Of a stretch of DNA of 64,000 nt, positions 20,541 through 47,544 are shown in pieces; the first letter of the stretch is position 1; every line of letters begins with the position of its first letter. Position numbers and translations under genes: made by a program. Below the pieces are notes generated by a model. It did not search any database. It worked only from the letters and a program-made list of their open reading frames with translations, and had not been told where the DNA came from. The stretch is from Thermosynechococcaceae cyanobacterium (GTDB lineage: Bacteria; Cyanobacteriota; Cyanobacteriia; Thermosynechococcales; Thermosynechococcaceae): contig JBGTDT010000030.1 in NCBI GenBank assembly GCA_041748155.1, forward strand, positions 14,894 through 78,893, written 5' to 3'.

Positions 20541-22220
20541 ATGAAAGTTATTCAAATTGGCATGGCAAAGAGCGGTAATTATTGGCTCTATACAATCTTG
20601 AAACAAATCCTCAGCCTGTCGGGTCAGTGGCAAGGATCATTCATTCAGAACCAACCGCTTTACGCAGAAGCCAAGAAGCTAACGCTAAGTGTAAAAGATC
20701 AGATTGACATTGACGTAATGAATATTGAGGATACAGGAGTTTACTATCGGATCAGCTCCCTTCCTCCCCACCGGATTGCGAATTTGGCTAACTATCTGGA
20801 CCAGTCCTCTTTGGTTTGGACGCACTCTCCTTTTTGTACTCGTTCTTTGCAGGTTCTATCTCACTTTTCAAAGAAAGTATACATTTGCCGGGATGGACGC
20901 GATGTGGCTGTATCAGCAGCGAGATTTGCGATGACGCCCTACAAGCAGACTTTTTATCCCAATCGGTTTAATACACCCGAAGAGTACCTAGAGAATTGCC
21001 TGGATGGAAAGGCACGAAGCTGGGCCAAGCACTGTGCAGGATATTTGATCTGTCCTGATATTTACTGGGTGTTCTACGAAAGACTCCTCCATGACTTTGA
21101 TCGTGAAATCGAAGGTCTACTCAATTACCTTGAGATAGACCTCAGTGCTGAGGATAAGGCTCAGGTAAAAAACCTAGCCAGTTTTGAGACCATGAAAAAA
21201 GACAGCCCCGACCATTTGAAAAAGGGAAAATCTGGGAACTGGTCCAGTTTTATGAACGAATACCAGCAGAAAAGATTTATTGAGATTGCTGGCTCAGTCC
21301 TAGAAGTACTGGGTTACCAGGTAAATGTGTCTCCACCCACAGCGACTAAGCTGCCCGTTCGGCCTCAATCTATTAGCCCTGAACTACTGAAAGCGTATCA
21401 AAAGAATGGGGTAGGGGGAAGTAAAAAGCCAGCGCTGCTCCCTAGAGCCCTTCAAAAGTTGAACCGTTTAATTTTCCAGACGCTTAAAGCTAAAAAATCA
21501 GAATATCCGGTCAAGATTGAAATGCAGACTTCTAAAGGAAGTATTTACTTAGAAGCGTGCAGCCCAGTTGAATACTATAGACTAAAGACGGCAAGTTACG
21601 GCTATGAGAAAGATTTCTTAGTTCGCTTTACAGGCGAACTAGAAGCAGATGATATCGTCTTCGACATTGGCGCAAATGTTGGTCTGACGACTGTGTACGC
21701 TGCTGCCTTTACAGAAAATGGTCAAGTCATCGCTTTTGAGTCCGACCCTGATACGCTAGGCTATCTGAAGCACAACCTCGGTCTTAACAAGTTTTCCCAT
21801 GTTGACTTTGTCCCCTGGGTACTTGGTGATACAGAAGGCCAAGCAACCTTGTGCCCTGAAGCTGCTGGTTTTGTCTCAGGCCCAAGAGAAGACAGACCAG
21901 TTATTTCGAATGATAAGACCAGGGTGCAAGCACGAACCCTAGACAGCGCCATCTTGAGTGGAGATTTACCCCTGCCAACTGTGCTAAAAATTGACATTGA
22001 GGGGGCTGTAGTTTTGTGTCTTAGAGGTGGGTCAAAATTATTGAACGCAGAGATAGGAGACAAGCCTCGCTTGATTTTTCTTAAACTATATCCAGACTTA
22101 CTTGCCTCATTTAACTCTAGTTCTGATCAGGTTCATCGGTTTCTATTGAGCAAGGGCTATTCGGTGGTCTGGGAGCAGCAACGCAATGCTCAGATCCACT
22201 ATTGCTATAAAACGAACTAA
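20541..22220 (+). CDS. Two-domain protein: N-terminal sulfotransferase plus C-terminal FkbM-family methyltransferase
   Basis: 559 aa. N-terminal half: GMAKSGNYWL, YICRDGRDVAVSAARF, KKGKSGNWSSFM (sulfotransferase-1/3 type motifs). C-terminal half: VFDIGANVGLTTVYAA, VIAFESDPD, VLKIDIEGA (FkbM/Methyltransf_21 type). Confidence 0.75.
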   Translation: MKVIQIGMAKSGNYWLYTILKQILSLSGQWQGSFIQNQPLYAEAKKLTLSVKDQIDIDVMNIEDTGVYYRISSLPPHRIANLANYLDQSSLVWTHSPFCTRSLQVLSHFSKKVYICRDGRDVAVSAARFAMTPYKQTFYPNRFNTPEEYLENCLDGKARSWAKHCAGYLICPDIYWVFYERLLHDFDREIEGLLNYLEIDLSAEDKAQVKNLASFETMKKDSPDHLKKGKSGNWSSFMNEYQQKRFIEIAGSVLEVLGYQVNVSPPTATKLPVRPQSISPELLKAYQKNGVGGSKKPALLPRALQKLNRLIFQTLKAKKSEYPVKIEMQTSKGSIYLEACSPVEYYRLKTASYGYEKDFLVRFTGELEADDIVFDIGANVGLTTVYAAAFTENGQVIAFESDPDTLGYLKHNLGLNKFSHVDFVPWVLGDTEGQATLCPEAAGFVSGPREDRPVISNDKTRVQARTLDSAILSGDLPLPTVLKIDIEGAVVLCLRGGSKLLNAEIGDKPRLIFLKLYPDLLASFNSSSDQVHRFLLSKGYSVVWEQQRNAQIHYCYKTN

Positions 22221-22231
22221 GTTCTCTAGAG

Positions 22232-23215
22232 ATGGTTAATTCCAGAGTATCTATTGTGATTCGTTGCTACAACGAAGAGCAACACATCGGTCGTCTACTC
22301 AGTGGTATTATTCAGCAGACCGTTCAAGATGTAGAAATTATTATCGTGGACTCCGGTTCCACTGATGCCACCCTGCTGATTGCATCGCGCTATCCAGTCA
22401 AAGTACTTTCGATTCGACCAGAAGACTTTTCCTTTGGGCGATCGCTCAACCTGGGTTGTCAGGCAGCGACCAGCGAGTTTCTGGTCATTGCCAGCGCTCA
22501 CGTTTACCCGGTGTATCAAGATTGGCTGGAGCGATTGTTAGCCCCGTTTTCCGATCCACAGGTTGCTTTGGCCTACGGCAAGCAGCGAGGCAATGAGATC
22601 ACGAAGTACTCCGAGCATCAAGTTTTTGCCAGATGGTTTCCGAGTGAATCCAACCTGAGCCAGGATTATCCTTTCTGTAACAATGCCAACGCTGCTATCC
22701 GGCGATCGCTGTGGGAACGGTTGCCCTACAACGAAGCCCTGACGGGATTAGAAGACCTACACTGGGCCAAGCAAGTCATCCAGTTAGGCTATAAAATTGC
22801 CTACGCCTCAGAGGCTGAGATTGTGCATGTACACAACGAAACCCCCCGGCGAATCTTTAATCGGTATCGGCGCGAAGCGATCGCCCTGAAGCATATTTTT
22901 CCGCAGGAACAATTTAACCTCTGGGATTTTATCCGCCTACTGATTACAAATGTCGCTAGCGACTACTACCATGCCAAGCATGATAGAGTCTTGACGAAAA
23001 ATCTTCTCTCTATCCCCACTTTTCGGAGTATGCAATTCTGGGGAACTTACCAGGGTTTTACCCAACAGGGTCCGATTACCAGCCAGCTCAAGCATACCTT
23101 CTACTATCCCCGTGGCCTAGCACGTCCGATCAACCCTTTGACAGCTTCTCACAACAGACCCACGATTGACTACAACAAATCCACCCAGGAGCAATCTATT
23201 GAGCAGGTACATTGA
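22232..23215 (+). CDS. Family-2 glycosyltransferase
   Basis: 327 aa. VSIVIRCYNEEQHIGRLLSGIIQQT ... IIIVDSGSTDAT, and LEDLHWA. Confidence 0.85.
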   Translation: MVNSRVSIVIRCYNEEQHIGRLLSGIIQQTVQDVEIIIVDSGSTDATLLIASRYPVKVLSIRPEDFSFGRSLNLGCQAATSEFLVIASAHVYPVYQDWLERLLAPFSDPQVALAYGKQRGNEITKYSEHQVFARWFPSESNLSQDYPFCNNANAAIRRSLWERLPYNEALTGLEDLHWAKQVIQLGYKIAYASEAEIVHVHNETPRRIFNRYRREAIALKHIFPQEQFNLWDFIRLLITNVASDYYHAKHDRVLTKNLLSIPTFRSMQFWGTYQGFTQQGPITSQLKHTFYYPRGLARPINPLTASHNRPTIDYNKSTQEQSIEQVH

Positions 23216-23840
23216 TATCTCAGTACCCGTATCTCCTGACTTACCTGCCTGGCCGGGTAGTCCCCCTATAGAACTTCAGCGTCGCCTCGATCTAGGGCAA
23301 GGCGATATCGTTAACGATACAACCCTGCATTTCAGTGTCCACACAGGCACTCACGTTGATGCTCCCCTCCACTTCTTAGCTGAGGGAAACAGCGTTGAAC
23401 ATCTACCGCTAGAAGTTCTGATCGGTCCAGCAGTCGTGGTCGATTTGCCAGATACGAATGCAGTATCTTCAGAAATTCTAGAGCAGTTGCCGCTGCCCCC
23501 AGGTGTGGAGCGCTTATTGATTCGTACTCGTAATTCCCGTCTATGGCAAGCAGACGTGCAAAAATTTCAGCCAGACTTTGTTGCCTTAACTGCCGATGCA
23601 GCCGAGTGGATTGTTGATCACGAGATTCGACTGATCGGTGTAGACTATCTCTCCGTACAGCGGTTTCACGACGGGCCAGAAACTCACTTAAATTTACTCA
23701 AAGCCGAAGTCGTAATTCTCGAAGGACTGAATCTAGCCTATGTCCAGGCAGGAGAGTACGAGCTAATATGCCTGCCAGTGATGCTAAAGGGGGTTGAGGG
23801 AGCACCAGCAAGAGCCATTTTACGGAGCTTTCTAAGTTGA
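23166..23840 (+). CDS. Cyclase-family metal hydrolase (kynurenine/aryl-formamidase-like)
   Basis: HTGTHVDAPLHF motif and DYLSV. The start is uncertain: TTG at 23166 or TTG at 23199, and both overlap the 3' end of the GT2 gene. Confidence 0.7.
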   Translation: MTTTNPPRSNLLSRYIDISVPVSPDLPAWPGSPPIELQRRLDLGQGDIVNDTTLHFSVHTGTHVDAPLHFLAEGNSVEHLPLEVLIGPAVVVDLPDTNAVSSEILEQLPLPPGVERLLIRTRNSRLWQADVQKFQPDFVALTADAAEWIVDHEIRLIGVDYLSVQRFHDGPETHLNLLKAEVVILEGLNLAYVQAGEYELICLPVMLKGVEGAPARAILRSFLS

Positions 23841-23861
23841 AATTAAAGGAGAGTGGTAGAG

Positions 23862-24635
23862 ATGCTAGTCATTTCAAATGGGGCGTTCAAGAGTGGATCT
23901 ACCTGGCTATATAATATTTTGCGTTGTATGACAGGCTTTCCTCCCCCTCCTGAGGAGTTCTTAAACCCTAACTGGGTAAATCCTTCAATTGATCCAGAAA
24001 AACTTACAAAATTTCTTAAAGAGGTTGATTTTTCTCACAAAAACTATTTGTGTAAAAATCACTTCGGTGGAAAATACCAGAGGGATCTTTTGCTAGCTTC
24101 TCCAAACGTTTTTATTTTAGATATAAAAAGAGATATTCGCGATGTAGTTGTTTCAGCATATTATCATCATCGCCGCAAGGGATACGATGAAAGCTTCAAA
24201 AATTATTATTGGAAAAAAGGCAAAAAAGTTGCTAACTTCGTTAGTAGTTATCAAAGAAATTGGGATGTTCAATCAACTAAAATTCTTATTGCATCCTATG
24301 AAAAACTACATTCTGATTTTAACAGTGAAACAAAGAAGATAGGAGACTTTTTGGGAATTCAAGTATCCGACCAGCTAAGTGAACAAATTAAAACTGAGAC
24401 AACCCTTGATAGTTTAAGAAATAGGTACGGAGAAAGTGACCAGAGTGATGATTCAAAATTTTTTAGAAAAGGAGTTATAGGAGATTGGCAAAATCATTTT
24501 GATGCCAAAATGGATCAAGATCTTGAGAAAGTGCAGAAGTTCAGTTTAAGTCACTCTGACAAAATTCAAGTAGAAATAACAAAACTTTATACTAAGACTA
24601 AGCGGAAAATAGAGCATTTGTTTTTGCCGAGTTGA
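23862..24635 (+). CDS. Sulfotransferase (family-1 type)
   Basis: GAFKSGSTWLYN, ILDIKRDIRDVVVSAYYH, FFRKGVIGDWQNHF. The ATG at 23862 is preceded by AAGGAG; an alternative GTG lies at 23853. The gene is AT-rich. Confidence 0.8.
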   Translation: MLVISNGAFKSGSTWLYNILRCMTGFPPPPEEFLNPNWVNPSIDPEKLTKFLKEVDFSHKNYLCKNHFGGKYQRDLLLASPNVFILDIKRDIRDVVVSAYYHHRRKGYDESFKNYYWKKGKKVANFVSSYQRNWDVQSTKILIASYEKLHSDFNSETKKIGDFLGIQVSDQLSEQIKTETTLDSLRNRYGESDQSDDSKFFRKGVIGDWQNHFDAKMDQDLEKVQKFSLSHSDKIQVEITKLYTKTKRKIEHLFLPS

Positions 24636-24823
24636 AGCAATGAAGATGTTGAGAAAAAGCCTTGTTTGATAGCTATAGCTGGCTTGTTGAGGGCCAAGTA
24701 TGGTTGGTGTAGACTGAACAGAATGAATTATTACACTTACCTTCATAAAGCTAACTTCTAAAGCTAATAGGAGTGAAAGAAACCCTTTGAGAAAGTAGTT
24801 TTAGAGAGGAGTGATAACAGGTG

Positions 24824-25666
24824 ATGAGGCAGTTCTATTCTTATCTGAAAGAACAACATAGTACTCACCAGTTTCGGGTAGACTTAAAGCATAGTTTGCA
24901 GAGAAAAGAAGCTATTTTGGTCCACACGATGGGTAAGGTAGGTTCATCTTCGATTAGAAAATCCCTCAAGGATTTGGAGTTGAGTATGCCCATTTACGGT
25001 ACCCACTTTCTAAATTCTGAACGCTTAGAAGCACATTTAAAAGTATTGAGACAAAAAGGTCAGAAGCCCGACGGTCATTTGGTAGTGAGTCAATGCCTCC
25101 AAGAAGTAATTAACAAAGGCATTAGTGATATAAATTGGAAAGTCATTACCCTTGTTAGAGAGCCAATTTCCAGGAATGTTTCAGGATTGTTTCAAAATAT
25201 TGATAAAATCTTTCCTAACTTTCTGCAGCGATATCACTCTGGTTCGCTCTCAATTCAGGAAGTTGTCAATGTTTTCCTCGCTGATTATCCCCATGAGCTA
25301 CCTTTAAACTGGCTAGACTGGGAAATAAAAGCTGTGTTTGGTATTGATGTTTTTTCAGTTAACTTTCCAAAGTCTGATGGCTATACAATATTTCATAGAA
25401 ATAATATAGACCTGCTGTTGCTAAGACTAGAAAGCCTTGCCGACTGTTCATTTAAAGCCTTTAGTGAGTTTTTAGGGACAAGAGAATTCACGCTTAAGAA
25501 GGCGAATGACTCAAGTGAGAAGGAATATTCTCAGGCTTATCGAGAATTTCGAAAATCTTTGCATCTTCCTCAAACTTATATAGAAGATATGTATCAGTCT
25601 AAGTATGTACAACATTTTTACACTCAGAACGAAATTGAGCTATTTCAGGCAAAATGGTCAAAGTAG
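24824..25666 (+). CDS. Divergent sulfotransferase-like protein
   Basis: VHTMGKVGSSSIRKSL (P-loop-like PAPS motif) and TLVREPISRNVSGLFQN (an R-x-P-x-x-R-x-x-S type motif). The gene is AT-rich. The family call is tentative. Confidence 0.5.
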   Translation: MRQFYSYLKEQHSTHQFRVDLKHSLQRKEAILVHTMGKVGSSSIRKSLKDLELSMPIYGTHFLNSERLEAHLKVLRQKGQKPDGHLVVSQCLQEVINKGISDINWKVITLVREPISRNVSGLFQNIDKIFPNFLQRYHSGSLSIQEVVNVFLADYPHELPLNWLDWEIKAVFGIDVFSVNFPKSDGYTIFHRNNIDLLLLRLESLADCSFKAFSEFLGTREFTLKKANDSSEKEYSQAYREFRKSLHLPQTYIEDMYQSKYVQHFYTQNEIELFQAKWSK

Positions 25667-25716: not shown

Positions 25717-26421
25717 ATGAGTAATGTCGCTGCCCTTGTTCCCATGCGCCACACTAGTGAACGGGTTCTTGGTAAGAACTACCGACCCTTTGCTGGACGG
25801 CCACTTTATCATCACATTATCGAAACCTTACTCAACTGCCCTGAAATTAAGCTTGTCTGTATTGACACAGATAGCTCTATGATTATCGAGGATGCTCGCC
25901 AGCATTTCCCCGATGTTAAAATCTTGCTCCGACCTGAGCACCTGCGAGCTGGGACAACTCCCATGAACGACGTGCTGGTAAACTCGGTCTCTCAGGTTGA
26001 TAGTGATGTTTTTCTGCAGACCCACAGTACCAATCCCCTGCTACGGGCTAAAACAATTTCCCAAGCAATCAGTCTGCTGCTCAATAGCCCTGACTACGAC
26101 AGTCTCTTTGGGGTGACCAGACTACAGACGCGGCTGTACGATGCCGCTGGTAAAGCAATGAATCACGACCCCAAGGTTTTGTTGCGAACGCAGGATCTGC
26201 CGCCAGTCTATGAAGAAAATTCAAACCTCTACGTCTTCAGGCGAGATACTTTGTTAGAGCGAAAGAATCGCGTTGGTAGGAGGCCACTTTTGTTTGAAAT
26301 TGACCCCCACGAGGCCTGGGATATAGATGAAGAGGTGGATTTTCGGATTGCTGAGCTACTTTACTTGGATCGACAAACCAGTCCTTCAGCGGAGAGAAAA
26401 ACATGGGCTGGCGAGTTCTGA
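25717..26421 (+). CDS. Acylneuraminate/Kdo-type cytidylyltransferase (CMP-sugar synthetase family)
   Basis: 234 aa. AALVPMRHTSERVLGKNYRPFAGRPLYHHII ... CIDTDS ... LQTHSTNPLL matches the NeuA/KdsB fold pattern. Confidence 0.75.
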   Translation: MSNVAALVPMRHTSERVLGKNYRPFAGRPLYHHIIETLLNCPEIKLVCIDTDSSMIIEDARQHFPDVKILLRPEHLRAGTTPMNDVLVNSVSQVDSDVFLQTHSTNPLLRAKTISQAISLLLNSPDYDSLFGVTRLQTRLYDAAGKAMNHDPKVLLRTQDLPPVYEENSNLYVFRRDTLLERKNRVGRRPLLFEIDPHEAWDIDEEVDFRIAELLYLDRQTSPSAERKTWAGEF

Positions 26422-27353
26422 TCACCTGTCCACCAATGCTACTGACTTTAGCAGAGTGCCAGGCAAGATTCACCACAGAAAACCTGGAAATAGTAGCGCC
26501 TAAAGTCGTACAACAGCTCAGCGAGGCAGAACTTTGTGAAATTATTTCTAATTTTGACGGGGTGATTGCCGGGGATGATCCCTTTACTGCTAAGGTTTTG
26601 GAGAAAGGTCGGCAAGGACGCCTACGAGTCCTGGCGAAATGGGGAATTGGCGTCGATGCGATTGACCTGGTTGCTGCACAAAGACTGGGTATACATACAT
26701 CTAATACCCCAAATGTATTTGGAGACGAAGTTGCTGATGTTGCCTTGGGTTACACAATTCTCCTGGCTCGCCGACTTCATCAAATTGATGCAGCTATTCG
26801 TCAGGGTCAATGGCTGAAAGTTCAGGGTACATCGCTGCGCGGTAAGGTGGCAGGGGTTGTTGGTGTCGGCAGTATTGGCAAAGCGATCGCCCGCCGTTTT
26901 AATACTTTGGGCATGCAGGTGCTTGGCTATGACGTTTACCCGATTGATCCTGCCTTCTGCCAGGAAACGGGTTTGCACCAGGTAGCGTTAGACGACTTGC
27001 TGTGTCAGGTTGATTGCGTTGTCCTCTCCTGTAGTTTGAATTCCAACAACTATCATCTATTGAACGAACAAGCCTTTTCAAGCATGAAAAACGGCGTCTG
27101 GATCGTTAATGTGGCGCGTGGACCCCTGATCGATGAAAAAGCCCTAGTCTCAAGTTTAGAGACTGGAAAAGTAGGGGGAGCCGCCCTGGACGTATTTGAA
27201 TCCGAGCCCCTCGCCCTGGGACACCCTCTACTCAACTATCCGCAAGTTATTGTCGGCAGTCATAATAGTTCTAATACCCGCGAAGCGGTCTTGCGAGTCA
27301 ATCAGCTTGCGATTGACAACTTAGTGCGTGGTTTGAGACAAAATACTGGCTAG
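26403..27353 (+). CDS. D-isomer-specific 2-hydroxyacid dehydrogenase family protein
   Basis: 316 aa. NAD motif GVVGVGSIGKAIARR, NVARGPLIDEKAL, and AALDVFESEP ... GSHNSSNT. Confidence 0.85.
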   Translation: MGWRVLITCPPMLLTLAECQARFTTENLEIVAPKVVQQLSEAELCEIISNFDGVIAGDDPFTAKVLEKGRQGRLRVLAKWGIGVDAIDLVAAQRLGIHTSNTPNVFGDEVADVALGYTILLARRLHQIDAAIRQGQWLKVQGTSLRGKVAGVVGVGSIGKAIARRFNTLGMQVLGYDVYPIDPAFCQETGLHQVALDDLLCQVDCVVLSCSLNSNNYHLLNEQAFSSMKNGVWIVNVARGPLIDEKALVSSLETGKVGGAALDVFESEPLALGHPLLNYPQVIVGSHNSSNTREAVLRVNQLAIDNLVRGLRQNTG

Positions 27354-27369
27354 ATGCTAGCTAGAGTGA

Positions 27370-28116
27370 ATGATGAAGCAAGTTGTCCTGATCACGGGCA
27401 TAGCAGGGGGTATTGGCTCTGCCACCGCAGCCCTGTTTTCCTCAAAAGGTTGGTACGTGGTTGGCGTTGACCAGAAATCTGCTAAGGGGACTGGCAGTGA
27501 TTACTATATTCAAGCTGATGCATCTGACCCTAAACAAATTTCTAATGTTGTAGAACAAGTTGGACAAAACCTGGGCAGGTTGGATGCACTAGTCAACAAC
27601 GCAGCGATTCAAATCTGTAAGCCCATCCTTGAGATGAGTGTGGCGGAGTGGGATAGGATTATGGCGGTTAATCTACGTTCCACCTTTGTCTGCTCTCAGG
27701 CCGCTCACCCCCTGCTGAAGGCAACTCAAGGGAGTATTGTCAATGTTAGCTCTGTCCATGCGATCGCAACCTCTGCTAATATTGCAGCTTATGCAGCCAG
27801 CAAGGGAGCGATCGTGGCCTTTACTCGCGCCTTGGCAATTGAATTTGCACCTGAGCAGATTCGGGTCAATGCTATACTGCCTGGTGCTGTAGATACGCCA
27901 ATGCTGCATGCAGGCTTGCAGCGAGGACACATTTCAGGAATACTGAATGAGCAGATGGATAAGCTGGGTAAGAAAACGGTCCTTGGTAGAGTTGGTAAAC
28001 CTGATGAAATTGCCGAAGCAATTCTGTTCTTGGCTAGTGCTCAACAGTCTTCCTTCATGACTGGCCAAGCATTGGTTGTGGATGGAGGAGCCACAACAAG
28101 ATTGAGTACTGAGTAA
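27370..28116 (+). CDS. Short-chain dehydrogenase/reductase (SDR)
   Basis: 248 aa. TGIAGGIGSA, NNAAI, catalytic SSVHA...YAASK, and PGAVDTPM. Confidence 0.9.
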   Translation: MMKQVVLITGIAGGIGSATAALFSSKGWYVVGVDQKSAKGTGSDYYIQADASDPKQISNVVEQVGQNLGRLDALVNNAAIQICKPILEMSVAEWDRIMAVNLRSTFVCSQAAHPLLKATQGSIVNVSSVHAIATSANIAAYAASKGAIVAFTRALAIEFAPEQIRVNAILPGAVDTPMLHAGLQRGHISGILNEQMDKLGKKTVLGRVGKPDEIAEAILFLASAQQSSFMTGQALVVDGGATTRLSTE

Positions 28117-28182
28117 CTATTCAACTGGGCTAGCAGTAGTTTTTTAAGCTAGAGTTAGAACTGCTTCAGGTACTTATTTTGA

Positions 28183-29016
28183 TTGGAAGAAATAGTGAGC
28201 GATTTAGTGAGGAAACCCCTTCACCAAGTTAAAGCAGTAGTAACAAAAGCGTACTTAAATTATTACTCCACTTCACTACGCTGGATGTGGTACTTAGAGC
28301 ACTCTAAACATTTATTGAAGTTCAAGGATGCTCATCAAGGTGAAAGTTGCTTCATTATTGGTAATGGTCCTTCTCTGAACAAGATGGATCTTTCTGAACT
28401 TAAAGATTGCTATACGTTTGGTCTAAATAAAATTTATTTACTCTTTGATAAAGTTGATTTGAATCTTAGCTACCATGTAGCAATGAATCCGCTGGTTATC
28501 GAGCAAAGCGCAAAAGAATTTGAATCTTTATACTGTCCATCTTTTTTATCCTATCGACATGCGCGCAGAATTGTTCATAACCTCGACCACGTGTATTTTA
28601 TCCTGTCAGGAAAATCGTTTACTTTTCAAACTGATTTATCCCAACCAGTTTGTGAGGGCCATACAGTAACCTATGTAGCCCTGCAAATTGCCTTTTACAT
28701 GGGGTTTAGCCAAGTTTTTTTAATTGGCGTCGATCATAACTTTGTTGCTGTTGGAAATCCCAACGAAAAACAGTTTCTTCAAGGAGAAGATCCTAACCAT
28801 TTTGCACCTGGCTATTTTGGCAACAAAGAATGGCACCTACCAGACTTAGAGGCATCTGAGCGAGCCTATAATCTTGCAAAACTGTACTTCAGTCAAGCCG
28901 GTCGTCAGGTTTACGATGCCACGGTCGGGGGTAAACTAGAGGTTTTTCCAAAAACTTCCTACGAGCAGGCTCTAACTATTTGTAGTAGGCAAGTAGTTAG
29001 GACTGGTCAAGTCTAG
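28183..29016 (+). CDS. DUF115 (MptE/Maf-like) / GT42 sialyltransferase-like transferase
   Basis: CFIIGNGPSLNKMDLSELKDCYTFGLNKIY parallels the Cst-II-type IIAGNGPSL...FRCNQFY N-terminus as recalled. GHTVTYVALQIAFYMGFSQVFLIGVDHNF parallels the second conserved block. The TTG start is uncertain. Confidence 0.6.
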   Translation: MEEIVSDLVRKPLHQVKAVVTKAYLNYYSTSLRWMWYLEHSKHLLKFKDAHQGESCFIIGNGPSLNKMDLSELKDCYTFGLNKIYLLFDKVDLNLSYHVAMNPLVIEQSAKEFESLYCPSFLSYRHARRIVHNLDHVYFILSGKSFTFQTDLSQPVCEGHTVTYVALQIAFYMGFSQVFLIGVDHNFVAVGNPNEKQFLQGEDPNHFAPGYFGNKEWHLPDLEASERAYNLAKLYFSQAGRQVYDATVGGKLEVFPKTSYEQALTICSRQVVRTGQV

Positions 29017-30379: not shown

Positions 30380-31324
30380 ATGAAAACTCCTATTGCTTTT
30401 CTAATCTTCAATCGGCCTGATACGACTAGAAAGGTATTTGAAGTTATTCGCCAAGTAAAACCACCCCAACTTTTAGTCGTTGCTGACGGCCCACGTCTAG
30501 AGCGACCCAATGAAGCAGAAAACTGTGCCGTTGTGCGGTCGATTATTGAGCGGGTTGATTGGGACTGCAAAGTATTGACCAATTATTCTGAGGTCAATTT
30601 GGGTTGTAAGAAACGCATCTCAAGCGGTTTGGACTGGGTTTTTAATACCGTAGAAGAAGCAATTATTCTTGAAGATGACTGTTTACCACACGCTACTTTC
30701 TTTCGCTTCTGCAAGGAATTACTGGAGAAGTATCGAAACGATACTAGAATTATGCATATTGGCGGTAACAATTACAATATTTCAGGTAGAAATCTAGATG
30801 ACAGCTACTACTTTTCAAGGGCGAATGCCGTTTGGGGTTGGGCAAGCTGGCGTAGAGCATGGCAGTACTTCGATGTAGACATGAGTCAGTGGCCTACACT
30901 AGTAAAAGAAAACAGGCTTGTGGATATGCTGGGCTCTCAGAAAGAAGCTGAAATCCGATATAGATATTGGAGCAAAGTCTATGCAGGAGATGTTAACGCA
31001 TGGTCCTATCAGTGGCACCTCGCCTGTCTGTGCCAAGGGGCATACTCTGTAGTACCCAATAGAAATCTTGTTTCTAATATAGGTTTCAATCAAGACAGTA
31101 CTCATACTGTTGATTCAACTAGCCCTTTTGCAAATCTAGAGACCCATGAGATGAAGTTTCCCCTTACCCATCCCAAGTTTATTGCTAAAGATAGTTATGC
31201 CTACAACCTATATTTTAGACAGCTATATAGTCCTAGACTTACAGATAAAATTAGTATAAAACTTAAAAAGGTAGCATCCAGGCTCAAGTCAGCATTTAAG
31301 CTTGAGCTACCTCGAATCAACTAA
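30380..31324 (+). CDS. Putative GT-A-fold nucleotide-sugar transferase (HlpA/GNT-I-like)
   Basis: 314 aa. PIAFLIFNRPDTTRKVFEVIRQVKPPQLLVVADGPR and ILEDDCLP (DxD-like) motifs. Confidence 0.45.
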   Translation: MKTPIAFLIFNRPDTTRKVFEVIRQVKPPQLLVVADGPRLERPNEAENCAVVRSIIERVDWDCKVLTNYSEVNLGCKKRISSGLDWVFNTVEEAIILEDDCLPHATFFRFCKELLEKYRNDTRIMHIGGNNYNISGRNLDDSYYFSRANAVWGWASWRRAWQYFDVDMSQWPTLVKENRLVDMLGSQKEAEIRYRYWSKVYAGDVNAWSYQWHLACLCQGAYSVVPNRNLVSNIGFNQDSTHTVDSTSPFANLETHEMKFPLTHPKFIAKDSYAYNLYFRQLYSPRLTDKISIKLKKVASRLKSAFKLELPRIN

Positions 31325-31629
31325 CAGTGTTAGTGTGAAACTGGTACTGCGTAGGAAATAGATTATTGAGATGACAGTTCAAATACCTAAGTAGATTCAA
31401 GCTTTGAATTAAGCATTGAAGTGATTTTATTGTCAACTAGGTTTTACTAAATCAAGGAACAATCACTGAATCGTTCTTTAGCTCTCTGTGACTATCTCGA
31501 ATTTTTAGAAATGAGTATTACTGACTAGTAATTAGTGAGAGAATCTTGAGTAAAACTCTGTCGACTCGACATGTGATTCAGGTATTTTGAACGCTTGCAA
31601 GTAGCTTATTTAAACTGATAGATTTCAAT

Positions 31630-32967
31630 ATGCCACATCTAGATCTTAGAGCTGAAAGTGTGGGGTTTGAGCATACAGAGTTAATACCACTTTGTGAAAT
31701 CACCCAGCGAGTCATAGACGGAGAAATCATCGTTGTACCCAGGTGCATGCAAGCTATTGGCTACTTCGAGCAATTAAAGCAGGCCAGTCTGGAAGGAATT
31801 CGCCGGGTGGTTGGTCAGGAGAAAGCCGCACAAGTTGAACGCGAGGGGTTTGAAGCGATTCATTCAGTTATTGATGCGGATGAACTGATCCCGATTACTG
31901 ACTGTACCTACGAGATTTTTGGCTCAATTGCGCCGATCTTGGTCAAAAAGGTAGTACAAGAAGTGCTTCTGAGAGATAGACCCTTTTACTACGAAGCCTA
32001 CCCTAACGTGCGGTTCCATGTTCCCTACGACGTAGGGGTACAGAAGAAGCAAAAATTTAGTGAATTTTTGCAAAGACGTGGGAATGGAAAGATTACGGCC
32101 CATGGACCACACCACGACAGTTGGTATCAGTGTCCCAGCAACGGCATCAATATCTGGATTGCTATTGGTCCTGTCAAGACTGGTAATGGGTTAAGTCTAT
32201 ATCCTCAGGTGTATGGAAAGCGTCTTCCTTGTACAAAAGATGGTGTAATCATGCGCGATCAGTACTTTGGGCCAGCCCTAAATTTTGAGTTGAAACCTGG
32301 GGATGCCCTGGTCTTTCATGGCGAGCATCTGCACAGCTCAGAGCTGAATAGCACGGGTACAACTCGACACGTCGTAAGTTTCCGAATCACCCTGGAAAAA
32401 CCTAAATTTCTGAATCAATCCTGTCACAACTATCTATACTCTGGGTCTAGTGGTGGGCTAATGGAAGGACTGGTTCAGCTTCCTGCGGCTAAGATGTTCC
32501 GCAGCCTTGTAAGACTACTTCAGAGCAGATTAAACACTAAGTTTCTGACACTTGGAAGGCAATCAAGCCCATCGCAGCAAGGCTCAGAGACCAACAGCGA
32601 TGTTCCAATGTTTCAAAATACATTAGTTGACTTCCCTAAAACGATCCAGGCTAAGAGTGCTGAAGATAAGACTAAGCTTATCTTTGACTCCTCTGAGTTA
32701 ACGATAGGTGAGATCCGCCCCCTGTCACCAGAAGTCTGTGTTGCACGTCCAGAGAAGCACCGCGTAGTAGCCTTCAGCAGGTATTGTCCCCATGAAGGAG
32801 CTGATCTAGCAGCAGGCTACTTGCGAGATGGGTGTATCGCCTGTCCTTGGCATAATCTACCCTTTGACCTAGAGAATGGCGCTAGCCCCTGTCAATCGTT
32901 GCGTCAGCTACCTGTCTTTGACTGCCTTCAACGCGGTGATGAGGTAGAGGTAAACTTGGGAGCATGA
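31630..32967 (+). CDS. Fusion of a PhyH-like Fe(II)/2-oxoglutarate dioxygenase domain with a C-terminal Rieske [2Fe-2S] domain
   Basis: 445 aa. Candidate facial triad in AHGPHHDSW and FHGEHLHSS. The C-terminal CPHEGADLAAGYLRDGCIACPWH is a C-x-H-x16-C-x2-H Rieske motif. Confidence 0.65.
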   Translation: MPHLDLRAESVGFEHTELIPLCEITQRVIDGEIIVVPRCMQAIGYFEQLKQASLEGIRRVVGQEKAAQVEREGFEAIHSVIDADELIPITDCTYEIFGSIAPILVKKVVQEVLLRDRPFYYEAYPNVRFHVPYDVGVQKKQKFSEFLQRRGNGKITAHGPHHDSWYQCPSNGINIWIAIGPVKTGNGLSLYPQVYGKRLPCTKDGVIMRDQYFGPALNFELKPGDALVFHGEHLHSSELNSTGTTRHVVSFRITLEKPKFLNQSCHNYLYSGSSGGLMEGLVQLPAAKMFRSLVRLLQSRLNTKFLTLGRQSSPSQQGSETNSDVPMFQNTLVDFPKTIQAKSAEDKTKLIFDSSELTIGEIRPLSPEVCVARPEKHRVVAFSRYCPHEGADLAAGYLRDGCIACPWHNLPFDLENGASPCQSLRQLPVFDCLQRGDEVEVNLGA

Positions 32968-33190
32968 GATTTGCATCTCCTTGCAGTGCAAGGGTTTCAT
33001 AGCACCTGTAGAGCGAGGGCATCTTAATCTAGGTTATGGGTAGCATTTTGAGCAAACAGCCTTCTATCCTGCGCTATGACACTGAGGACAGGTAACAGTT
33101 TCTCCTGGTATAGGGGTATAAGTACTAGTTTGCTTACTCTATCCGTACCAACTGAGGATTAACAACTTAAAAAACTTCAAATATAGCTTT

Positions 33191-35392
33191 ATGTGGCTTT
33201 TCTCAAGACTACGGGGTCTCTACCCAACGATACAAAAGAAGCTTTGGGTTGAGCAACCCTGTGTTGTGAGGTTTCTGATTGATGACTCAATCAGTTTACA
33301 TCAGGTAGCACAGACGCTCTCAAGTCCTTGGTTTTCTGATGCTAGGCTCGTAGAGATTGATGCAAAAGAACCCGCTACTTATCAGGTAGCTGAACTCGTA
33401 GGCCTTCTGTTTAAGAAGCTACCAAAGCTATCTTATGTTTCGTTGATCACAAACCCTTTAAACAGTGCTCGAGTTGTCGAAAGTATTCCTAAAATTGGTC
33501 AAGTAATCAACTCTCATACCGCTTGCTTAGATATCGTTGTGTCTCTGAGCGGAAGTGAGAGTAGCTTCAGTAAGGCACAAGACAGAGAAGCAAACTTTGA
33601 AAACTTAGTCAAACTGATTGGGTTTATTCAAACTTCTAACTTAGTTTTTAGTAGTAGATTTAGATGCAGGGTTACCAAAGAAAATGTTTACGTTTTACAT
33701 GACTGGCTAGAGTTTGCGATCGCAAACAATATCTATATCAATTACACCTTTGAAACACTCTATCCACAATCCCGCTCAAGTAACCATAACTTTGCTGATC
33801 TTAAGTTTGAGGAAAAGTATCATCTCTCTATTTTTCTAGAAAATTTAATTAAGTTTTATGAACCTCATACTTCACAGAGATCATTTTATCGATCTTCTGT
33901 GGATCAATTAATCTACAGGAAGCCTCTTGGAATTCATACCGGGCAGCATCGAGAAGTCACGCTCTCTACTAAAGCGGGTCAAGATTGCGTGGTTGAAAAT
34001 AGCACCCCTGGCTCCGTAATTACTCCAGCTCCTGTGTCATTGAAGGCTAACGTATCCGGGAGGCTCAAAAATTTGGAATCTTCCATTTCCGCCTTAAAAA
34101 CCTCGAAAGCCCTGAAACCTCTCAAGCGGTTCAAACAGCAGTTAGGTTTCCAGAGGCAAATGATCAGGGCAGGGGTTGATCAAGCCACTCTTTTGAATCC
34201 GCAACCTGCTTTTCGTTTTCCTCAGGCTTCTACTAGCAAACGTAAAGTTCTAATTTGTGGCTGGTACGGAACTGAAACCTTAGGAGATAAGGCCATCCTT
34301 GGCGGCGTGGTTAACTCAATTCAAACTTCTTTAGGAGATGTTGAACTCTACCTAGCATCCCTAGAAGCGCTGTACGTCTCCCAGATGACAATTCTCCAAA
34401 TGCCTGAATTACGGGGATGCCATCTACACGCTGTTGCAGAGGCGAGAAGTCTAGCAGGTTCAATGGACTTGGTCGTCTTTGGTGGAGGACCTGTGATGGC
34501 AATTGAGCCGCTGGCTGAGATGATCGCTATTTTCCAGCAAGCGGTCGAGGCAGGCGTCCCGACATTAATCGCGGGGTGTGGGGTCGGTCCCTTAGGTGCA
34601 GGCTACTACAACAAAGCAATTAAGACTTTGCTGCTGCATGCCTCTCATCGGATTTATCGGGATTTGAAGTCTCTGGAGCTGGCCCAATCCCTCGGAGTTG
34701 ATACTACAAATGACCAAGTAGCAGAAGATCCAGCCTTTACCTGGTTAAGTGGTCTGTCCACTAACCCTGCTTTAACAGCCCAGATACCCGTTGAGAACAA
34801 TCCTCAGCTCTTACTTGGACTGAGGGATTGGCCTCAGCATCAGTATGCTCCAGAATTGACCAGTACTGAGGCTGAGCGTTTGAAGCTACGCTTTGCCAGA
34901 GAAGTCATCGCCGCCCTAGAGCTGCTGCTTGTTCAGCACCCCACGCTTAGAATTATTCCTTTCCCCATGTGTACGAATCATATTGGGGGTGACGATCGCT
35001 GGTTTTACCGTGACTTATTCAGAGGTCATTCCAAACTACAAACAGCCCTTGATTTCACCTGCTTAGGCGCGGAGCTGAATCCGATTGAAGCTGTGAAGAT
35101 TTTTAAGGCTGCTTCAGTAGCTTTGACGATGAGGTTTCACTCCCTTGTTTTTGCTTTGGCAGTTGGGCTTCCCAGCGTGTCCGTGGACTATACTTTAGGG
35201 CGTGGAAAAGTGAAATCTCTAGCTGAAAAGCACTGTGTTCCCCAAATGAGTCTGGATGTGATTACGCGTGAGTTTATCTTTTCGTCGTTATCGCCACTTT
35301 TAGCGACTGGTCAAAGACGATCTGCGTTAAATGGGTCAGGTGATTTGAGGTTCAAACCTCTAGTTGGCGCTTTTCTCTCCTCTTTGAGCTGA
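33191..35392 (+). CDS. Polysaccharide pyruvyl transferase (CsaB-like) with a ~330-aa unassigned N-terminal domain
   Basis: 733 aa. The C-terminal half has KVLICGWYGTETLGDKAILGGV, LVVFGGGPV and TMRFHSLVFALAVGLPSVSVDY. No family was recognised for the N-terminal half. Confidence 0.7.
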   Translation: MWLFSRLRGLYPTIQKKLWVEQPCVVRFLIDDSISLHQVAQTLSSPWFSDARLVEIDAKEPATYQVAELVGLLFKKLPKLSYVSLITNPLNSARVVESIPKIGQVINSHTACLDIVVSLSGSESSFSKAQDREANFENLVKLIGFIQTSNLVFSSRFRCRVTKENVYVLHDWLEFAIANNIYINYTFETLYPQSRSSNHNFADLKFEEKYHLSIFLENLIKFYEPHTSQRSFYRSSVDQLIYRKPLGIHTGQHREVTLSTKAGQDCVVENSTPGSVITPAPVSLKANVSGRLKNLESSISALKTSKALKPLKRFKQQLGFQRQMIRAGVDQATLLNPQPAFRFPQASTSKRKVLICGWYGTETLGDKAILGGVVNSIQTSLGDVELYLASLEALYVSQMTILQMPELRGCHLHAVAEARSLAGSMDLVVFGGGPVMAIEPLAEMIAIFQQAVEAGVPTLIAGCGVGPLGAGYYNKAIKTLLLHASHRIYRDLKSLELAQSLGVDTTNDQVAEDPAFTWLSGLSTNPALTAQIPVENNPQLLLGLRDWPQHQYAPELTSTEAERLKLRFAREVIAALELLLVQHPTLRIIPFPMCTNHIGGDDRWFYRDLFRGHSKLQTALDFTCLGAELNPIEAVKIFKAASVALTMRFHSLVFALAVGLPSVSVDYTLGRGKVKSLAEKHCVPQMSLDVITREFIFSSLSPLLATGQRRSALNGSGDLRFKPLVGAFLSSLS

Positions 35393-38653: not shown

Positions 38654-40021
38654 ATGATTACTATTGCTACAAGTTTACTAGTAACTTCATTTGCAATTCT
38701 ACTAATCGTTTTCTTTCGCAAGAAGATAAATTTAATATCAAACTACACAGTATATGTTTTTTTTACTGTTCTTTACTCTGTATTCCCAACCCTAACTTTT
38801 CTCAAAATAGAACCGCAGATATGGTTTCGTCACTACACGCTCAATGAATCTGAATTACTAGTATCAACACAAATTCTAATCATGAGTTTGTGCAACATCA
38901 TCTTCGCATATGTTTTCTACTCAAGCTATAGAAAGTCAAATATCTCCGCTGTCAGGCCTCAGGCTGCCAAAAAGGATATTTATCAAAACCTAATCTTTAT
39001 CAGTTATACAATAGCGTGCCTAGCGCTAATACTTATTGGACTTAAGTATAGCTATACTTCTAATAGAGGAATAATAGTACACTCGATTATATCAAACGCG
39101 AAGACGATATTAGCATCAGTCTATGTGTTCTTTATCGTCAGATATGGACTGAGCTACCGTATACTTCTGATGTTTTTTGGCTATGTTTTTCTGCTGCTTG
39201 TTGAACAGTCGAGAATATACTTTGTCATGGTATTAGTTACAAGTTTGCTTTACTTACAGAATACAAAAGAAGTTAAGAAAGAAACACTAATAAGCACTAA
39301 CGGCTTGTTGCAAGTTATCAGTAGTGTCAAGACGGGAAAGCTAAGTAATAGGCAAATGATAGCTCTATTGTTAGTATCCTTTGTACTTTTATCCTATGTT
39401 GCATTAGCAAGGTCTGGTGTTAAAATTGAAGACTTCATAATCTTTCTTAATCCATTTTATATAGAAGGCGACTATGGATCATACATGATCTTACAAACCT
39501 ACGATCTAGTTTACAAAGGGGTCATTGACTTCTATACACTGTTTCTAGATTACCTGGTTGATCCAATTATTTATCTTTTGCCGAGATTCATTTTTATGCT
39601 CTCTGGAATAAACAAAGATGGTGTAGGAATATTTGAAACTTTTGTGGCTTCTTATGATCGCTACTTAGCCGAAAAATATGCCCCAGTCGGAGGTTTTCAT
39701 TACATCGCTCAAGCCTCTAGTGCTTTACCATTTCTGGGTCCACTACTTGTAACTTATATTTTTGCTAGAGTAACTGTCAGGGTAGAAAACTCTATGCGTA
39801 AAGCTACAGTCAGTAATTTTAGTGAGTTAACATACTATTTATACTCTTCTGGTTTTGCATTTGTCTTCATAAAAACCTTGTTTCATCAAACTGTAAAATA
39901 CTACGCAACACTTGCTATTCCTGCCTACTTTCTATTCTTTTTACTGAAAAGATATGATAAGGAAAAAGCAAAACGAAGTCACCAAAAAAACTTGCATTTT
40001 CAACGCTCGCTTTCTAACTAG
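38654..40021 (+). CDS. Polytopic membrane protein, Wzy-like polysaccharide polymerase candidate
   Basis: 455 aa with about 10 or more hydrophobic segments. AT-rich, sits between two GT4 genes. Assigned by context and topology only. Confidence 0.5.
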   Translation: MITIATSLLVTSFAILLIVFFRKKINLISNYTVYVFFTVLYSVFPTLTFLKIEPQIWFRHYTLNESELLVSTQILIMSLCNIIFAYVFYSSYRKSNISAVRPQAAKKDIYQNLIFISYTIACLALILIGLKYSYTSNRGIIVHSIISNAKTILASVYVFFIVRYGLSYRILLMFFGYVFLLLVEQSRIYFVMVLVTSLLYLQNTKEVKKETLISTNGLLQVISSVKTGKLSNRQMIALLLVSFVLLSYVALARSGVKIEDFIIFLNPFYIEGDYGSYMILQTYDLVYKGVIDFYTLFLDYLVDPIIYLLPRFIFMLSGINKDGVGIFETFVASYDRYLAEKYAPVGGFHYIAQASSALPFLGPLLVTYIFARVTVRVENSMRKATVSNFSELTYYLYSSGFAFVFIKTLFHQTVKYYATLAIPAYFLFFLLKRYDKEKAKRSHQKNLHFQRSLSN

Positions 40022-41090
40022 GCCTGTCACTGGAGTTGAGCGATATGCAACTGAACTTCTAAAGGCTTTGGATTTTTTAATCGACATTGGAGAGATAAGC
40101 TCCAAACAATTCTCCTTTGAGTTACTAGCTCCAAAAAATGTTAAGCATAGTCTTAACCTTAAGCATATACCTCTTAAATGTGTGGGGCTATTTAGTGGTC
40201 ATCTGTGGGAGCAGCTAGAATTACCTTTTTATGCTAAAGGTGCTCTGCTAATTAACTTGTGTAATACAGCACCGTTACTAACTCGTCTTCAAATTGTAAC
40301 CATTCATGATGCAGTAGTTTATGCTTTTCCCGACGCTTACTCTTTCATTTTCCGGTCTTGGTACCAACTACTTTGGCCGAGCTTAGGGGTAGTTGCTAAA
40401 CAGATACTGACAACTTCACTATTCTCAAAAAAAGAATTGATGCAGCATTGCAAGATAAGCCAAGAAAAGTTGCAGATAGTCTATGCAGGAAAAGAACATA
40501 TCCTTGCTATACAGTCAGATGAAAAGGTTTTTCTAAAACATGGCTTAGTAGGTCGGAAGTATGCGTTGGCAGTCAGTAGCTTAAACCCTAATAAAAACTT
40601 TTCTTCTATCGTTCGAGCTATCGAAATATTGGGTGATGTTGACTTTGATATTGTGATTGTGGGGGGTGCTAATCCAAAAATTTTTAGCCAGACGCAAATA
40701 TCCCTGCCCAATAGTGTTAAGTACTTAGGTTATGTAAGTGATGCTGAGCTGAAAGCTCTATATGAGTATGCAAGCTGTTTTATCTACCCTTCTTTTTACG
40801 AGGGATTTGGTTTACCCCCACTTGAGGCAATGGCCTGTGGTTGCCCAGTAATAGTTTCTGGTGCTGCCTCCCTACCTGAAGCATGTGCTGATGCAGCTCT
40901 GTATTGTGACCCCTATGACCTCGAAGACATCGCCAACAAGCTGGTTATGCTGATGAATAACACCAAACTTCGTGAAGAGCTACGGCAAAAAGGTTTGGAA
41001 CGTGCTAAACAGTTTACTTGGCAGAAGTGTGCTAGAGAGGCTTTTGCCGTAATCGAAAAAGTCCTAGCTTCGCAGGCTTTTTACTTTTAA
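39954..41090 (+). CDS. Family-4 glycosyltransferase (paralog of 37517-38617)
   Basis: 378 aa. FNARFLTRPVTGVERYATEL and [23 protein letters not shown]. The only in-frame start overlaps the upstream gene by 68 nt. Confidence 0.8.
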   Translation: MIRKKQNEVTKKTCIFNARFLTRPVTGVERYATELLKALDFLIDIGEISSKQFSFELLAPKNVKHSLNLKHIPLKCVGLFSGHLWEQLELPFYAKGALLINLCNTAPLLTRLQIVTIHDAVVYAFPDAYSFIFRSWYQLLWPSLGVVAKQILTTSLFSKKELMQHCKISQEKLQIVYAGKEHILAIQSDEKVFLKHGLVGRKYALAVSSLNPNKNFSSIVRAIEILGDVDFDIVIVGGANPKIFSQTQISLPNSVKYLGYVSDAELKALYEYASCFIYPSFYEGFGLPPLEAMACGCPVIVSGAASLPEACADAALYCDPYDLEDIANKLVMLMNNTKLREELRQKGLERAKQFTWQKCAREAFAVIEKVLASQAFYF

Positions 41091-41635
41091 GGCTTACTTA
41101 TCAGAACTACCAAGTCTTCTAGCTTTCAAGTGGTTTTAACTAGATAGACCTAATCTTTTACTCAATTTTACTGCTTTGCCCTTAGTTAAAGACTTAAGAA
41201 GTGATAATCAACTAAATTTCCTCAAGCTATAGGAGTTTGTTGTTACAAAAGGACCTAATTATGTTTATTTGATTTCTAATTGCAAGAACCTGCAAGCAGT
41301 TAGGCTTGTACAAAAGCTACTTCTACAGAAGCCTTGAGCTTAAAAATTAAATTCAAGTTGATAAATTTTGCTCTTGATGGCTAAGTAGGTAAAGTTGAAG
41401 ATTTTTGCCTTTCTCATGAAAGAAGCTTTAAAGGTAGGTGTGATGGTGTATTCATTTAGCACACTCATAGATCTGCTAGATAATTCTTAGCGTCGAGTCT
41501 GCAACTGCTACAACATAGCTTTACGGAATCTTCTTTGGGTTGCGCTAAGGTTACAAGATAGCTGTAACTTAATATAGAGGCCAGCATGCTTGTTTTGATT
41601 CAGCTTTGCTCTGGAGTGTCTTGCTGCAAACTCAG

Positions 41636-45515: not shown

Positions 45516-45522
45516 AAGTTTG

Positions 45523-47527: not shown

Positions 47528-47544
47528 GCTTTAATAGAAATGCT

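Follow-up and report, generated by a model that had tools for sequence, protein, structure and literature searches.

A PhyH-type iron oxygenase domain paired with a Rieske ferredoxin domain and linked to pyruvyl-transferase-family genes in bacterial polysaccharide loci

In canonical hydroxylation by Fe(II)/2-oxoglutarate (2OG) oxygenases, the electrons are supplied by 2OG and none are needed from outside. The reactions of CarC, SnoN, AndA and FtmOx1 need outside electrons to reduce a radical: SnoN, which like SnoK acts on an aminosugar, carries out a sugar epimerisation at C4'', CarC uses a Tyr as hydrogen donor, and the rearrangement catalysed by AndA ends in a radical reduction for which 'the biological reductant remains unknown' (PMC12006828). 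Ascorbate rescues Fe(III) in 2OG oxygenases that undergo uncoupling (PMC11831678). SnoN and SnoK (both from nogalamycin biosynthesis), AndA, FtmOx1 and PtlH belong to natural-product pathways; they neither carry nor are known to have a dedicated iron-sulfur (Fe-S) partner, and their reductant in vivo is not established or, in vitro, is ascorbate. Here we report on a gene from a Thermosynechococcaceae cyanobacterium in which an oxygenase domain of this kind is joined to an Fe-S domain. It is found at positions 31630-32967 on the forward strand of a 64,000-nucleotide stretch (contig JBGTDT010000030.1 of assembly GCA_041748155.1, positions 14,894 to 78,893; this whole stretch is called the window) and codes for a protein of 445 amino acids (aa), which we call PhyH-Rieske, as we do its homologues.

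PhyH-Rieske has the same fold, the same HxD...H triad and the same 2OG-binding Arg, Ser and Trp residues as the five natural-product enzymes. It differs from them in having its own Fe-S partner and in occurring in polysaccharide loci, and the sequence identity is 12-18%. The open reading frame (ORF) is present exactly as claimed in an earlier note on this DNA, and both parts of the fusion proposed there score above their Pfam thresholds. Rieske (PF00355) is matched at aa 365-418 with 42 bits (cut-off 20.3; E=9e-11), and PhyH (PF05721) at aa 150-248 with 30.7 bits (cut-off 22; E=4.8e-7). Among the NCBIfam models only Rieske ferredoxins were matched, all below threshold, and a sequence search of the PDB returned only weak Rieske ferredoxins and, for the N-terminal half, MysH and SnoN.

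An AlphaFold2 model built from a 40-sequence alignment is confident overall, with a predicted local distance difference test (pLDDT) score of 90.4 and a predicted template modelling (TM) score of 0.87. According to this model, the PhyH-type Fe(II)/2OG oxygenase domain (aa 1-285, 31630-32484) is a double-stranded beta-helix (DSBH) member of the PhyH superfamily. Foldseek matches and the profile alignment to human PhyH support this assignment. The interdomain linker (aa 286-340, 32485-32649) consists of a predicted helix (aa 286-305) and a segment predicted to be disordered (aa 306-323, pLDDT below 50), and its length differs between members of the family. The remainder (aa 341-445, 32650-32964) is the Rieske-type [2Fe-2S] ferredoxin domain. 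When the model was compared to the PDB with Foldseek, the N-terminal half matched the PhyH-family Fe/2OG dioxygenases PtlH, AndA, SptF, human PhyH and FtmOx1 (E about 2e-6, probability 1.0, TM-score up to 0.58 on the target), and the C-terminal part matched the Rieske ferredoxins TodB, CarAc and the naphthalene dioxygenase (NDO) ferredoxin (TM-score 0.7-0.79). None of the Foldseek PDB matches is a solved chain with PhyH and Rieske domains together.

Rieske non-heme iron oxygenases (naphthalene/carbazole dioxygenase, SxtT/GxtA, CntA) likewise combine a Rieske centre with a mononuclear iron held by two His and one carboxylate. In their alpha subunits, however, an N-terminal Rieske domain is followed by a catalytic domain of SRPBCC/Bet v 1 type, whereas in PhyH-Rieske the DSBH comes first, the Rieske domain is C-terminal and the 2OG pocket is kept. 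Ring_hydroxyl_A was not matched by Pfam in the 445-aa protein, and classification as a Rieske oxygenase alpha subunit was rejected for the wrong fold and the wrong domain order.

The metal-binding motifs listed in the earlier note were all recovered by translation. The facial-triad motif H161-H162-D163 is encoded at 32110-32118, the distal iron ligand H235 lies together with S237 and R246 at 32332-32367, where the translated stretch from H235 to R246 reads HSSELNSTGTTR, and the cluster ligands C386-P-H388 and C405-P-W-H408 are found at 32785-32853, where CPHEGADLAAGYLRDGCIACPWH represents CPH-x16-CPWH. A profile of the N-terminal domain aligns to human phytanoyl-CoA hydroxylase PhyH with E=9.5e-7 and also matched SnoK and SnoN. 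In the alignment to human PhyH, H161 and D163 correspond to H175 and D177 of its HQD motif, H235 to H264, S237 to S266, R246 to R275 and W176 to W193. We take these PhyH residues, from the published structure, to be the iron ligands and the holders of the C5 carboxylate of 2OG. The N-terminal half thus models as a DSBH with a metal triad; the earlier note had named the opposite outcome as a refutation.

Conservation was counted over 268 family sequences, among them a subfamily that shares no more than about 25% identity with the protein from the window. The iron ligands are nearly invariant (H161 in 261 of 263, D163 in 260 of 263, H235 in all 262), and so are R246 (258 of 262) and W176 (264 of 264); S237 is kept in 232 of 262 sequences and replaced by Thr in 23 more. 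In sequences that cover the Rieske domain, C386 and C405 are invariant (224 of 224 each), and H388 (223 of 224) and H408 (217 of 223) nearly so. All nine residues H161, D163, H235, R246, W176, C386, H388, C405 and H408 occur together in 210 sequences. There are also conserved aromatic residues, considered here with a hydrogen-atom donor such as Tyr165 of CarC in mind: Y268 is found in 197 of 250 sequences, the position of Y195 is occupied by Y, W or F, and Y94 is found in 122 of 254. Because ligands and pocket residues are near-invariant, both the 2OG-type iron site and the cluster are probably functional. We infer that 2OG is bound, which would be the simplest explanation for the persistence of the W193, S266 and R275 equivalents down to about 25% identity. 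The Rieske domain has no disulfide Cys of the CxHxGC / CxCH type, which suggests a ferredoxin of the low-potential type.

The two domains also occur as separate proteins. At locus L061 (6001-7225), the gene of a Rieske-less PhyH family member (P0166, 323 aa) overlaps by 14 nt with a stand-alone Rieske gene of 88 aa that follows it and has the signature of the fused domain (YCPHEGADL...CPWHNL.FD..TG..PC.SL). Six contigs are recorded with this split arrangement, which was read in two assemblies that are independent of each other. A pairing that is kept in both fused and split form is a classic sign of a two-component enzyme. The L061 locus is a Wzx/Wzy locus with dTDP-sugar genes, a TylF-type methyltransferase and, 5 kb downstream, a PS_pyruv_trans gene.

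The architecture is recurrent and conserved, and it has no functional name in any source. A word-indexed search returned at least 269 relatives. The best 120 of these have 80-100% query coverage (all but three at least 88%) with identities of 38-59%. Their names are generic, for example 'Rieske 2Fe-2S domain-containing protein' and 'nitrite reductase/ring-hydroxylating ferredoxin subunit'. The nearest homologues (54-59% identity) are from filamentous cyanobacteria. When a profile of only the N-terminal domain was searched exhaustively against 1.84 billion cluster representatives, the number of matches was 739 at E<=1e-3, 299 at E<=1e-10 and 151 at E<=1e-30; the majority have 400-450 aa and are therefore Rieske-fused. 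We estimate that the pairing exists in about 150-300 sequence clusters, in most of them as a fusion. A locus scan with one genome per species yielded about 46 full-length loci from Cyanobacteria, Alpha- and Gammaproteobacteria, Myxococcota, Gemmatimonadota, Acidobacteriota, Planctomycetota and Actinomycetes, and in all loci with called genes that were inspected PhyH-Rieske sits among polysaccharide genes. In the literature we found no description of the PhyH-Rieske architecture nor of a link between PhyH, Rieske and pyruvyl transferase. The earlier note had called the fusion mechanistically odd and had named a common architecture with an assigned function as a refutation; the combination is indeed unusual, and it recurs under generic names only.

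The most frequent neighbour of PhyH-Rieske is a polysaccharide pyruvyl-transferase-family gene (PS_pyruv_trans, PF04230). Such genes were sought with a broad iterative profile within flanks of up to 10 kb in 50 non-redundant loci. They were found in 34 of these, and in 16 they are adjacent (<300 bp), overlapping or fused. Their placement varies (upstream, downstream, convergent, divergent), they are spread over at least seven phyla, and they accompany both of the deeply divergent PhyH-Rieske subfamilies. The partners belong to at least four subfamilies of PF04230: cyanobacterial forms of about 350 aa, forms of about 365 aa that occur beside the distant PhyH-Rieske subfamily, forms of 500-790 aa with unannotated N-terminal extensions, and the radical-SAM-fused form that is present in the window. 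In the distant subfamily (L049-L052 and L054, e.g. L050 9836-11212; 25-27% identity), the canonical PS_pyruv_trans gene of ~365 aa is upstream; in L049-L052 it overlaps PhyH-Rieske, and in L054 the distance is about 1.3 kb. Natural fusions also exist, at least four of them independent. PS_pyruv_trans, PhyH and Rieske are joined in L012, in a single ORF of 920 codons, and in P0176, with GT41 as a fourth domain in P0172, while P0136 consists of PS_pyruv_trans and PhyH, with Rieske not detected. It is the adjacency and the fusions that make the argument, not the raw 68%. The conserved functional partner of PhyH-Rieske is thus a PS_pyruv_trans-family transferase, and in the window it is the gene directly downstream.

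In Methylocaldum (L033 8380-10329), the gene directly downstream of PhyH-Rieske codes for a fusion of PS_pyruv_trans with a family 2 glycosyltransferase (GT2). Outside the cyanobacteria, many PhyH-Rieske loci (L003, L006, L021, L024, L025, L027, L034, L036, L037, L043 and others) have a gene set in common. It consists of an NTP_transferase, two epimerase/dehydratases, a Methyltransf_13/14 sugar C-methyltransferase, GT2, DUF6798, a GT-C enzyme of the PMT_2 family, Wzx, an FAD amino-oxidase-like protein, LPG_synthase_TM, a polysaccharide deacetylase and two S-adenosylmethionine (SAM) methyltransferases. This looks like a widespread glycoconjugate pathway that is as yet undescribed.

The partner gene in the window (33191-35392, forward strand) codes for 733 aa. 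As judged from Pfam, alignment and AlphaFold2, its N-terminal half is a degenerate radical-SAM-like domain while the C-terminal half is an intact PS_pyruv_trans domain (aa 394-667, 34370-35191; E=4e-18, 66.7 bits against a cut-off of 25.3). The model (pLDDT 80.8) has a C-terminal half of GT-B type, with TM-scores of 0.6-0.69 for the top GT-B matches. In a profile search of the PDB only the radical-SAM half was matched; by sequence, the transferase half had no match and thus no solved pyruvyl transferase. More than 400 homologous proteins of about 790 aa are Radical_SAM + PS_pyruv_trans fusions with the motifs CxxxCxxC, GGEPTL and SLDG..VHDxVRGR and an auxiliary CxxCxHDY. The radical-SAM half of this family is closest to SkfB, MoaA and BlsE (cytosylglucuronate decarboxylase). 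In the window copy (33191-34369), an 18-residue deletion covers CxxxCxxC, GGEPTL is changed to AKEPAT and the auxiliary Cys motif is deleted, and the radical SAM domain (PF04055) is not matched by Pfam in this half. The same motifs are lost in the nearest relative of the partner, P0264. In the transferase half, every family-invariant residue is kept.

Polysaccharide loci with fusions of Radical_SAM and PS_pyruv_trans (L064 8001-10370, L065 8001-10370, P0265-P0382) occur in cyanobacteria, Chloroflexota, Gallionella and others. We found nothing relevant in the literature on radical SAM enzymes combined with pyruvyl transferases. These fusions are a second case in which a pyruvyl-transferase domain is welded to an enzyme that abstracts hydrogen atoms and uses low-potential electrons. 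They differ from PhyH-Rieske in that their chemistry is independent of O2, they usually occur without it (L063-L065), and in the window the radical-SAM half is degenerate. The degenerate half had prompted the idea that PhyH-Rieske is an aerobic replacement for a dead radical-SAM domain. This was not upheld: L063, with a degenerate radical-SAM half, and L064 and L065, with an intact one, all lack PhyH-Rieske, while in L005, L020 and L044 a separate, intact Radical_SAM + SPASM gene beside the transferase coexists with PhyH-Rieske. Pyruvyl-transferase domains are thus coupled in two independent ways, by radical SAM and by PhyH-Rieske, to enzymes that abstract hydrogen and require electrons. This suggests that 'pyruvyl transferase' genes take part in a modification more elaborate than a plain ketal.

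A close comparison is possible with L063 (the locus of P0264), which is syntenic with the window. In L063, only about 40 bp lie between a 306-aa gene and the transferase gene. The equivalent 314-aa gene of the window (30380-31324, forward strand; no Pfam match, 76% aa identity) and the transferase gene are 1,866 bp apart, an interval made up of PhyH-Rieske and the spacers on both of its sides, all of which are absent from L063. The gene with its spacers is a discrete, optional indel module directly before the pyruvyl transferase, with the 314-aa gene at its left edge. No flanking direct or inverted repeats that would suggest a mobile insertion were found at this module. The upstream spacer (31325-31629, 305 bp, GC content 0.334) and the downstream spacer (32968-33190, 223 bp, GC content 0.417, no terminator-like site) are the second and third largest gaps of the cluster. 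Both of the flanking spacers described in the earlier note are real, but only the upstream one is clearly AT-rich. To the same note the gene looked like its own transcription unit; relative to L063 it behaves as a discrete indel, but consensus scans for promoters and terminators in both spacers gave nothing above shuffled background.

We consider it somewhat probable that PhyH-Rieske is a cytoplasmic, 2OG-dependent tailoring oxygenase for surface polysaccharides with two metal centres, which acts on a sugar within a pyruvylated repeat unit and in which the Rieske domain relays electrons to the iron. The protein is placed in the cytoplasm as a soluble enzyme because it has neither a signal peptide nor a transmembrane segment (hydropathy maximum 1.51). 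Pyruvyl-transferase-family enzymes work in the same compartment on lipid-linked repeat units. The N-terminal domain would bind Fe(II) via H161, D163 and H235, and 2OG via W176, S237 and R246. An Fe(IV)=O species would then abstract a hydrogen from the sugar of a nucleotide- or lipid-linked repeat-unit intermediate, and this C-H abstraction may fall just before or just after pyruvylation, with the PS_pyruv_trans-family transferase serving the same pathway step. The Rieske domain is envisaged as an obligate and dedicated one-electron relay to the iron site, the transfer being assumed to be intramolecular. The electron could be used to quench a substrate radical in a reaction that is redox-neutral for the substrate, such as an epimerisation of CarC/SnoN type or a termination of AndA/FtmOx1 type. 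Alternatively, it could re-reduce Fe(III) after uncoupled turnover; bacteria are not known to make ascorbate. We favour a built-in reductant because the best structural matches include AndA, FtmOx1 and PtlH and because the profile also hit SnoK and SnoN. By analogy, PhyH-Rieske would come closest in its working to those PhyH enzymes that depend on a reductant, except that here the reductant is part of the protein.

Several observations weigh against this reading. No ferredoxin reductase gene is conserved among the recurrent neighbours of the family loci. P0215, a fusion of a GT4 domain with a PhyH-like domain, and P0136 appear to have no Rieske domain. The distant subfamily has the cluster motif CPH...CP[AG]C, in which a Cys replaces the second His; this predicts a [2Fe-2S] cluster with three Cys and one His, which would not be a true Rieske centre, and a strictly Rieske-type cluster is thus not essential. 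L063 makes its glycan without PhyH-Rieske, which makes the modification an optional decoration. The specificity of the partner for phosphoenolpyruvate or pyruvyl groups is read from Pfam membership and the GT-B fold only. Finally, 16 of the 50 loci have no PS_pyruv_trans gene in the flank, about seven of these being on truncated contigs.

The same observations have to be weighed for other readings of the two centres. As the main alternative, the Rieske domain might replace 2OG altogether, so that the enzyme would resemble a Rieske oxygenase, CMP-Neu5Ac hydroxylase or ACC oxidase on a DSBH scaffold, with two electrons delivered through the [2Fe-2S] cluster to activate O2 at the mononuclear iron, while the Arg/Ser/Trp pocket holds a carboxylate of the substrate (pyruvate ketal or uronic acid). 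In both the fused and the split form the Fe-S partner is an obligate one, and the close genetic link to a carboxylate-installing enzyme offers a natural ligand for R246 and S237. There is also precedent, since in the DSBH enzymes IPNS and ACC oxidase the RxS motif is reused for the carboxylate of the substrate and the electrons come from elsewhere. However, the residues corresponding to W193, S266 and R275 are essentially invariant down to about 25% identity, the loci have no conserved reductase gene, and a few members appear to have no Rieske domain, so that we regard a replacement of 2OG as unlikely. The Fe-S domain might instead be regulatory or structural: it might sense redox state, O2 or iron and so control an otherwise ordinary 2OG hydroxylase, or it might serve for docking. 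This would account for the fact that the canonical hydroxylase cycle runs without external electrons. Exchange of a His ligand for Cys, and loss of the domain in a few members, is a tolerance that is odd for a tuned relay. Such a role is nevertheless quite unlikely, as over 97% of the sequences that cover the domain retain the cluster ligands, the pairing is also kept with the 88-aa Rieske protein as a separate, translationally coupled gene, and the nearest structural relatives are Rieske ferredoxins that shuttle electrons.

Other alternatives concern the substrate. The association with pyruvyl transferases may be incidental, the target being another component of the cluster such as a C-methylated deoxysugar nucleotide, a lipid carrier or a non-glycan metabolite. 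Several other families recur as neighbours in non-cyanobacterial loci, namely nucleoside-diphosphate (NDP)-sugar dehydratase/epimerase (20 loci), Wzx (18), GT2 (16), DUF6798 (15), sugar C-methyltransferase (13) and PMT_2 (13), and fusions to GT4 (P0215) and GT41 (P0172) exist. All of these are less common than PS_pyruv_trans, which adjoins or overlaps PhyH-Rieske in 16 loci, forms part of at least four fusion proteins, is present with both divergent subfamilies and is, alone of the recurrent families, also found beside the window gene; we therefore consider an incidental association very unlikely. Even less credence is given to the proposal that the earlier note made as a speculation, by which PhyH-Rieske would hydroxylate a CMP-activated sugar or its acyl group, in analogy to the animal CMP-Neu5Ac hydroxylase (CMAH), and serve the module 2.6 kb upstream. 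That module belongs to the same cluster, and CMAH is a sugar-modifying enzyme that likewise has both a Rieske centre and a mononuclear iron site, the latter in a non-SRPBCC fold. But the fold of PhyH-Rieske is a DSBH of 2OG type that keeps the 2OG residues of human PhyH, unlike CMAH, the domain order is reversed, and CMAH was matched neither by the PDB sequence search nor by Foldseek with PhyH-Rieske. The cytidylyltransferase CTP_transf_3 is found in none of the 49 other family loci, so that among the 50 non-redundant loci only the window has it, and six homologue loci with listed called genes, all of them polysaccharide loci, contain no cytidylyltransferase. The only other match to CTP_transf_3 was in L056, a weak PhyH-only match that was excluded from the family set. 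The indel adjoins the pyruvyl transferase and not the CMP module, and L063 lacks PhyH-Rieske; the CMP-sugar linkage was rejected.

The glycan setting described in the earlier note is borne out by the Pfam content around the gene. PhyH-Rieske is part of a biosynthesis cluster of about 25 kb for a sulfated/pyruvylated polysaccharide (18668-43898, forward strand), which extends from a minus-strand CysQ-like Inositol_P gene at its left edge to a GDP-mannose-dehydratase-like gene, is bounded by the CysQ-like phosphatase gene and a UbiD gene, and has 22 co-directional genes. By Pfam, these code for three sulfotransferases, GT2 and GT4 glycosyltransferases, the pyruvyl transferase, the cytidylyltransferase module and the GDP-mannose-dehydratase-like protein. 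The sulfotransferases (18668-24635) are a Sulfotransfer_2 gene at 19675, a fusion of Sulfotransfer_1 with an FkbM methyltransferase at 20541 and a Sulfotransfer_1 gene at 23853. Their position beside the divergent CysQ-like Inositol_P phosphatase implies a sulfated exopolysaccharide. A 'putative cyclase' gene (PF04199, 23166-23840) overlaps by 50 nt with the preceding GT2 gene. The CMP module (25717-29016), which is preceded by an NKWYS-family gene (24821-25666), consists of CTP_transf_3 cytidylyltransferase, a D-2-hydroxyacid dehydrogenase, a short-chain dehydrogenase/reductase (SDR) and an MptE-like protein (PF01973), and does not look like a standard pathway for sialic, Kdo, legionaminic or pseudaminic acid. 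A 455-aa ORF without Pfam match (38654-40021) occupies the position of the Wzy_C polymerase of L063 and overlaps by 68 nt with the GT4 gene at 39954-41090. This is followed by the largest intergenic spacer of the cluster (41091-41605, 515 bp, GC content 0.353). Beyond the cluster (43998-51321) there are genes for a UbiD-family decarboxylase, a Uma2-family endonuclease, a UvrD-like helicase and a cytochrome P450, which are apparently unrelated.

Going beyond the preferred reading, it is possible, and we put this forward only tentatively, that PhyH-Rieske proteins are the first oxygenases of 2OG fold with a dedicated Fe-S donor. They would then be either self-contained radical sugar epimerases or isomerases, with a built-in ferredoxin as the source of the reductant that reactions of CarC, SnoN and AndA type require, or 2OG-independent DSBH mono-oxygenases driven by the Rieske domain, and together with the pyruvyl-transferase-family enzymes they would carry out a pyruvate-linked glycan modification that is chemically undescribed. 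An oxygenase tied to its own Rieske ferredoxin implies either a 2OG cycle in which the reductant arrives by protein wire, or a DSBH that has moved to O2 activation of the Rieske type. This bears on a question of the field, namely which reductant acts in vivo on the terminal radical or on Fe(III) in reactions of the CarC, SnoN, AndA and FtmOx1 type. The family is small, distinct, soluble, well predicted and phylogenetically broad, its cofactor combination is unprecedented and its genetic partner is well defined. For glycobiology, it would mean that the 'pyruvylation' genes of capsule, extracellular polysaccharide and O-antigen loci possibly yield more than a simple pyruvate ketal.

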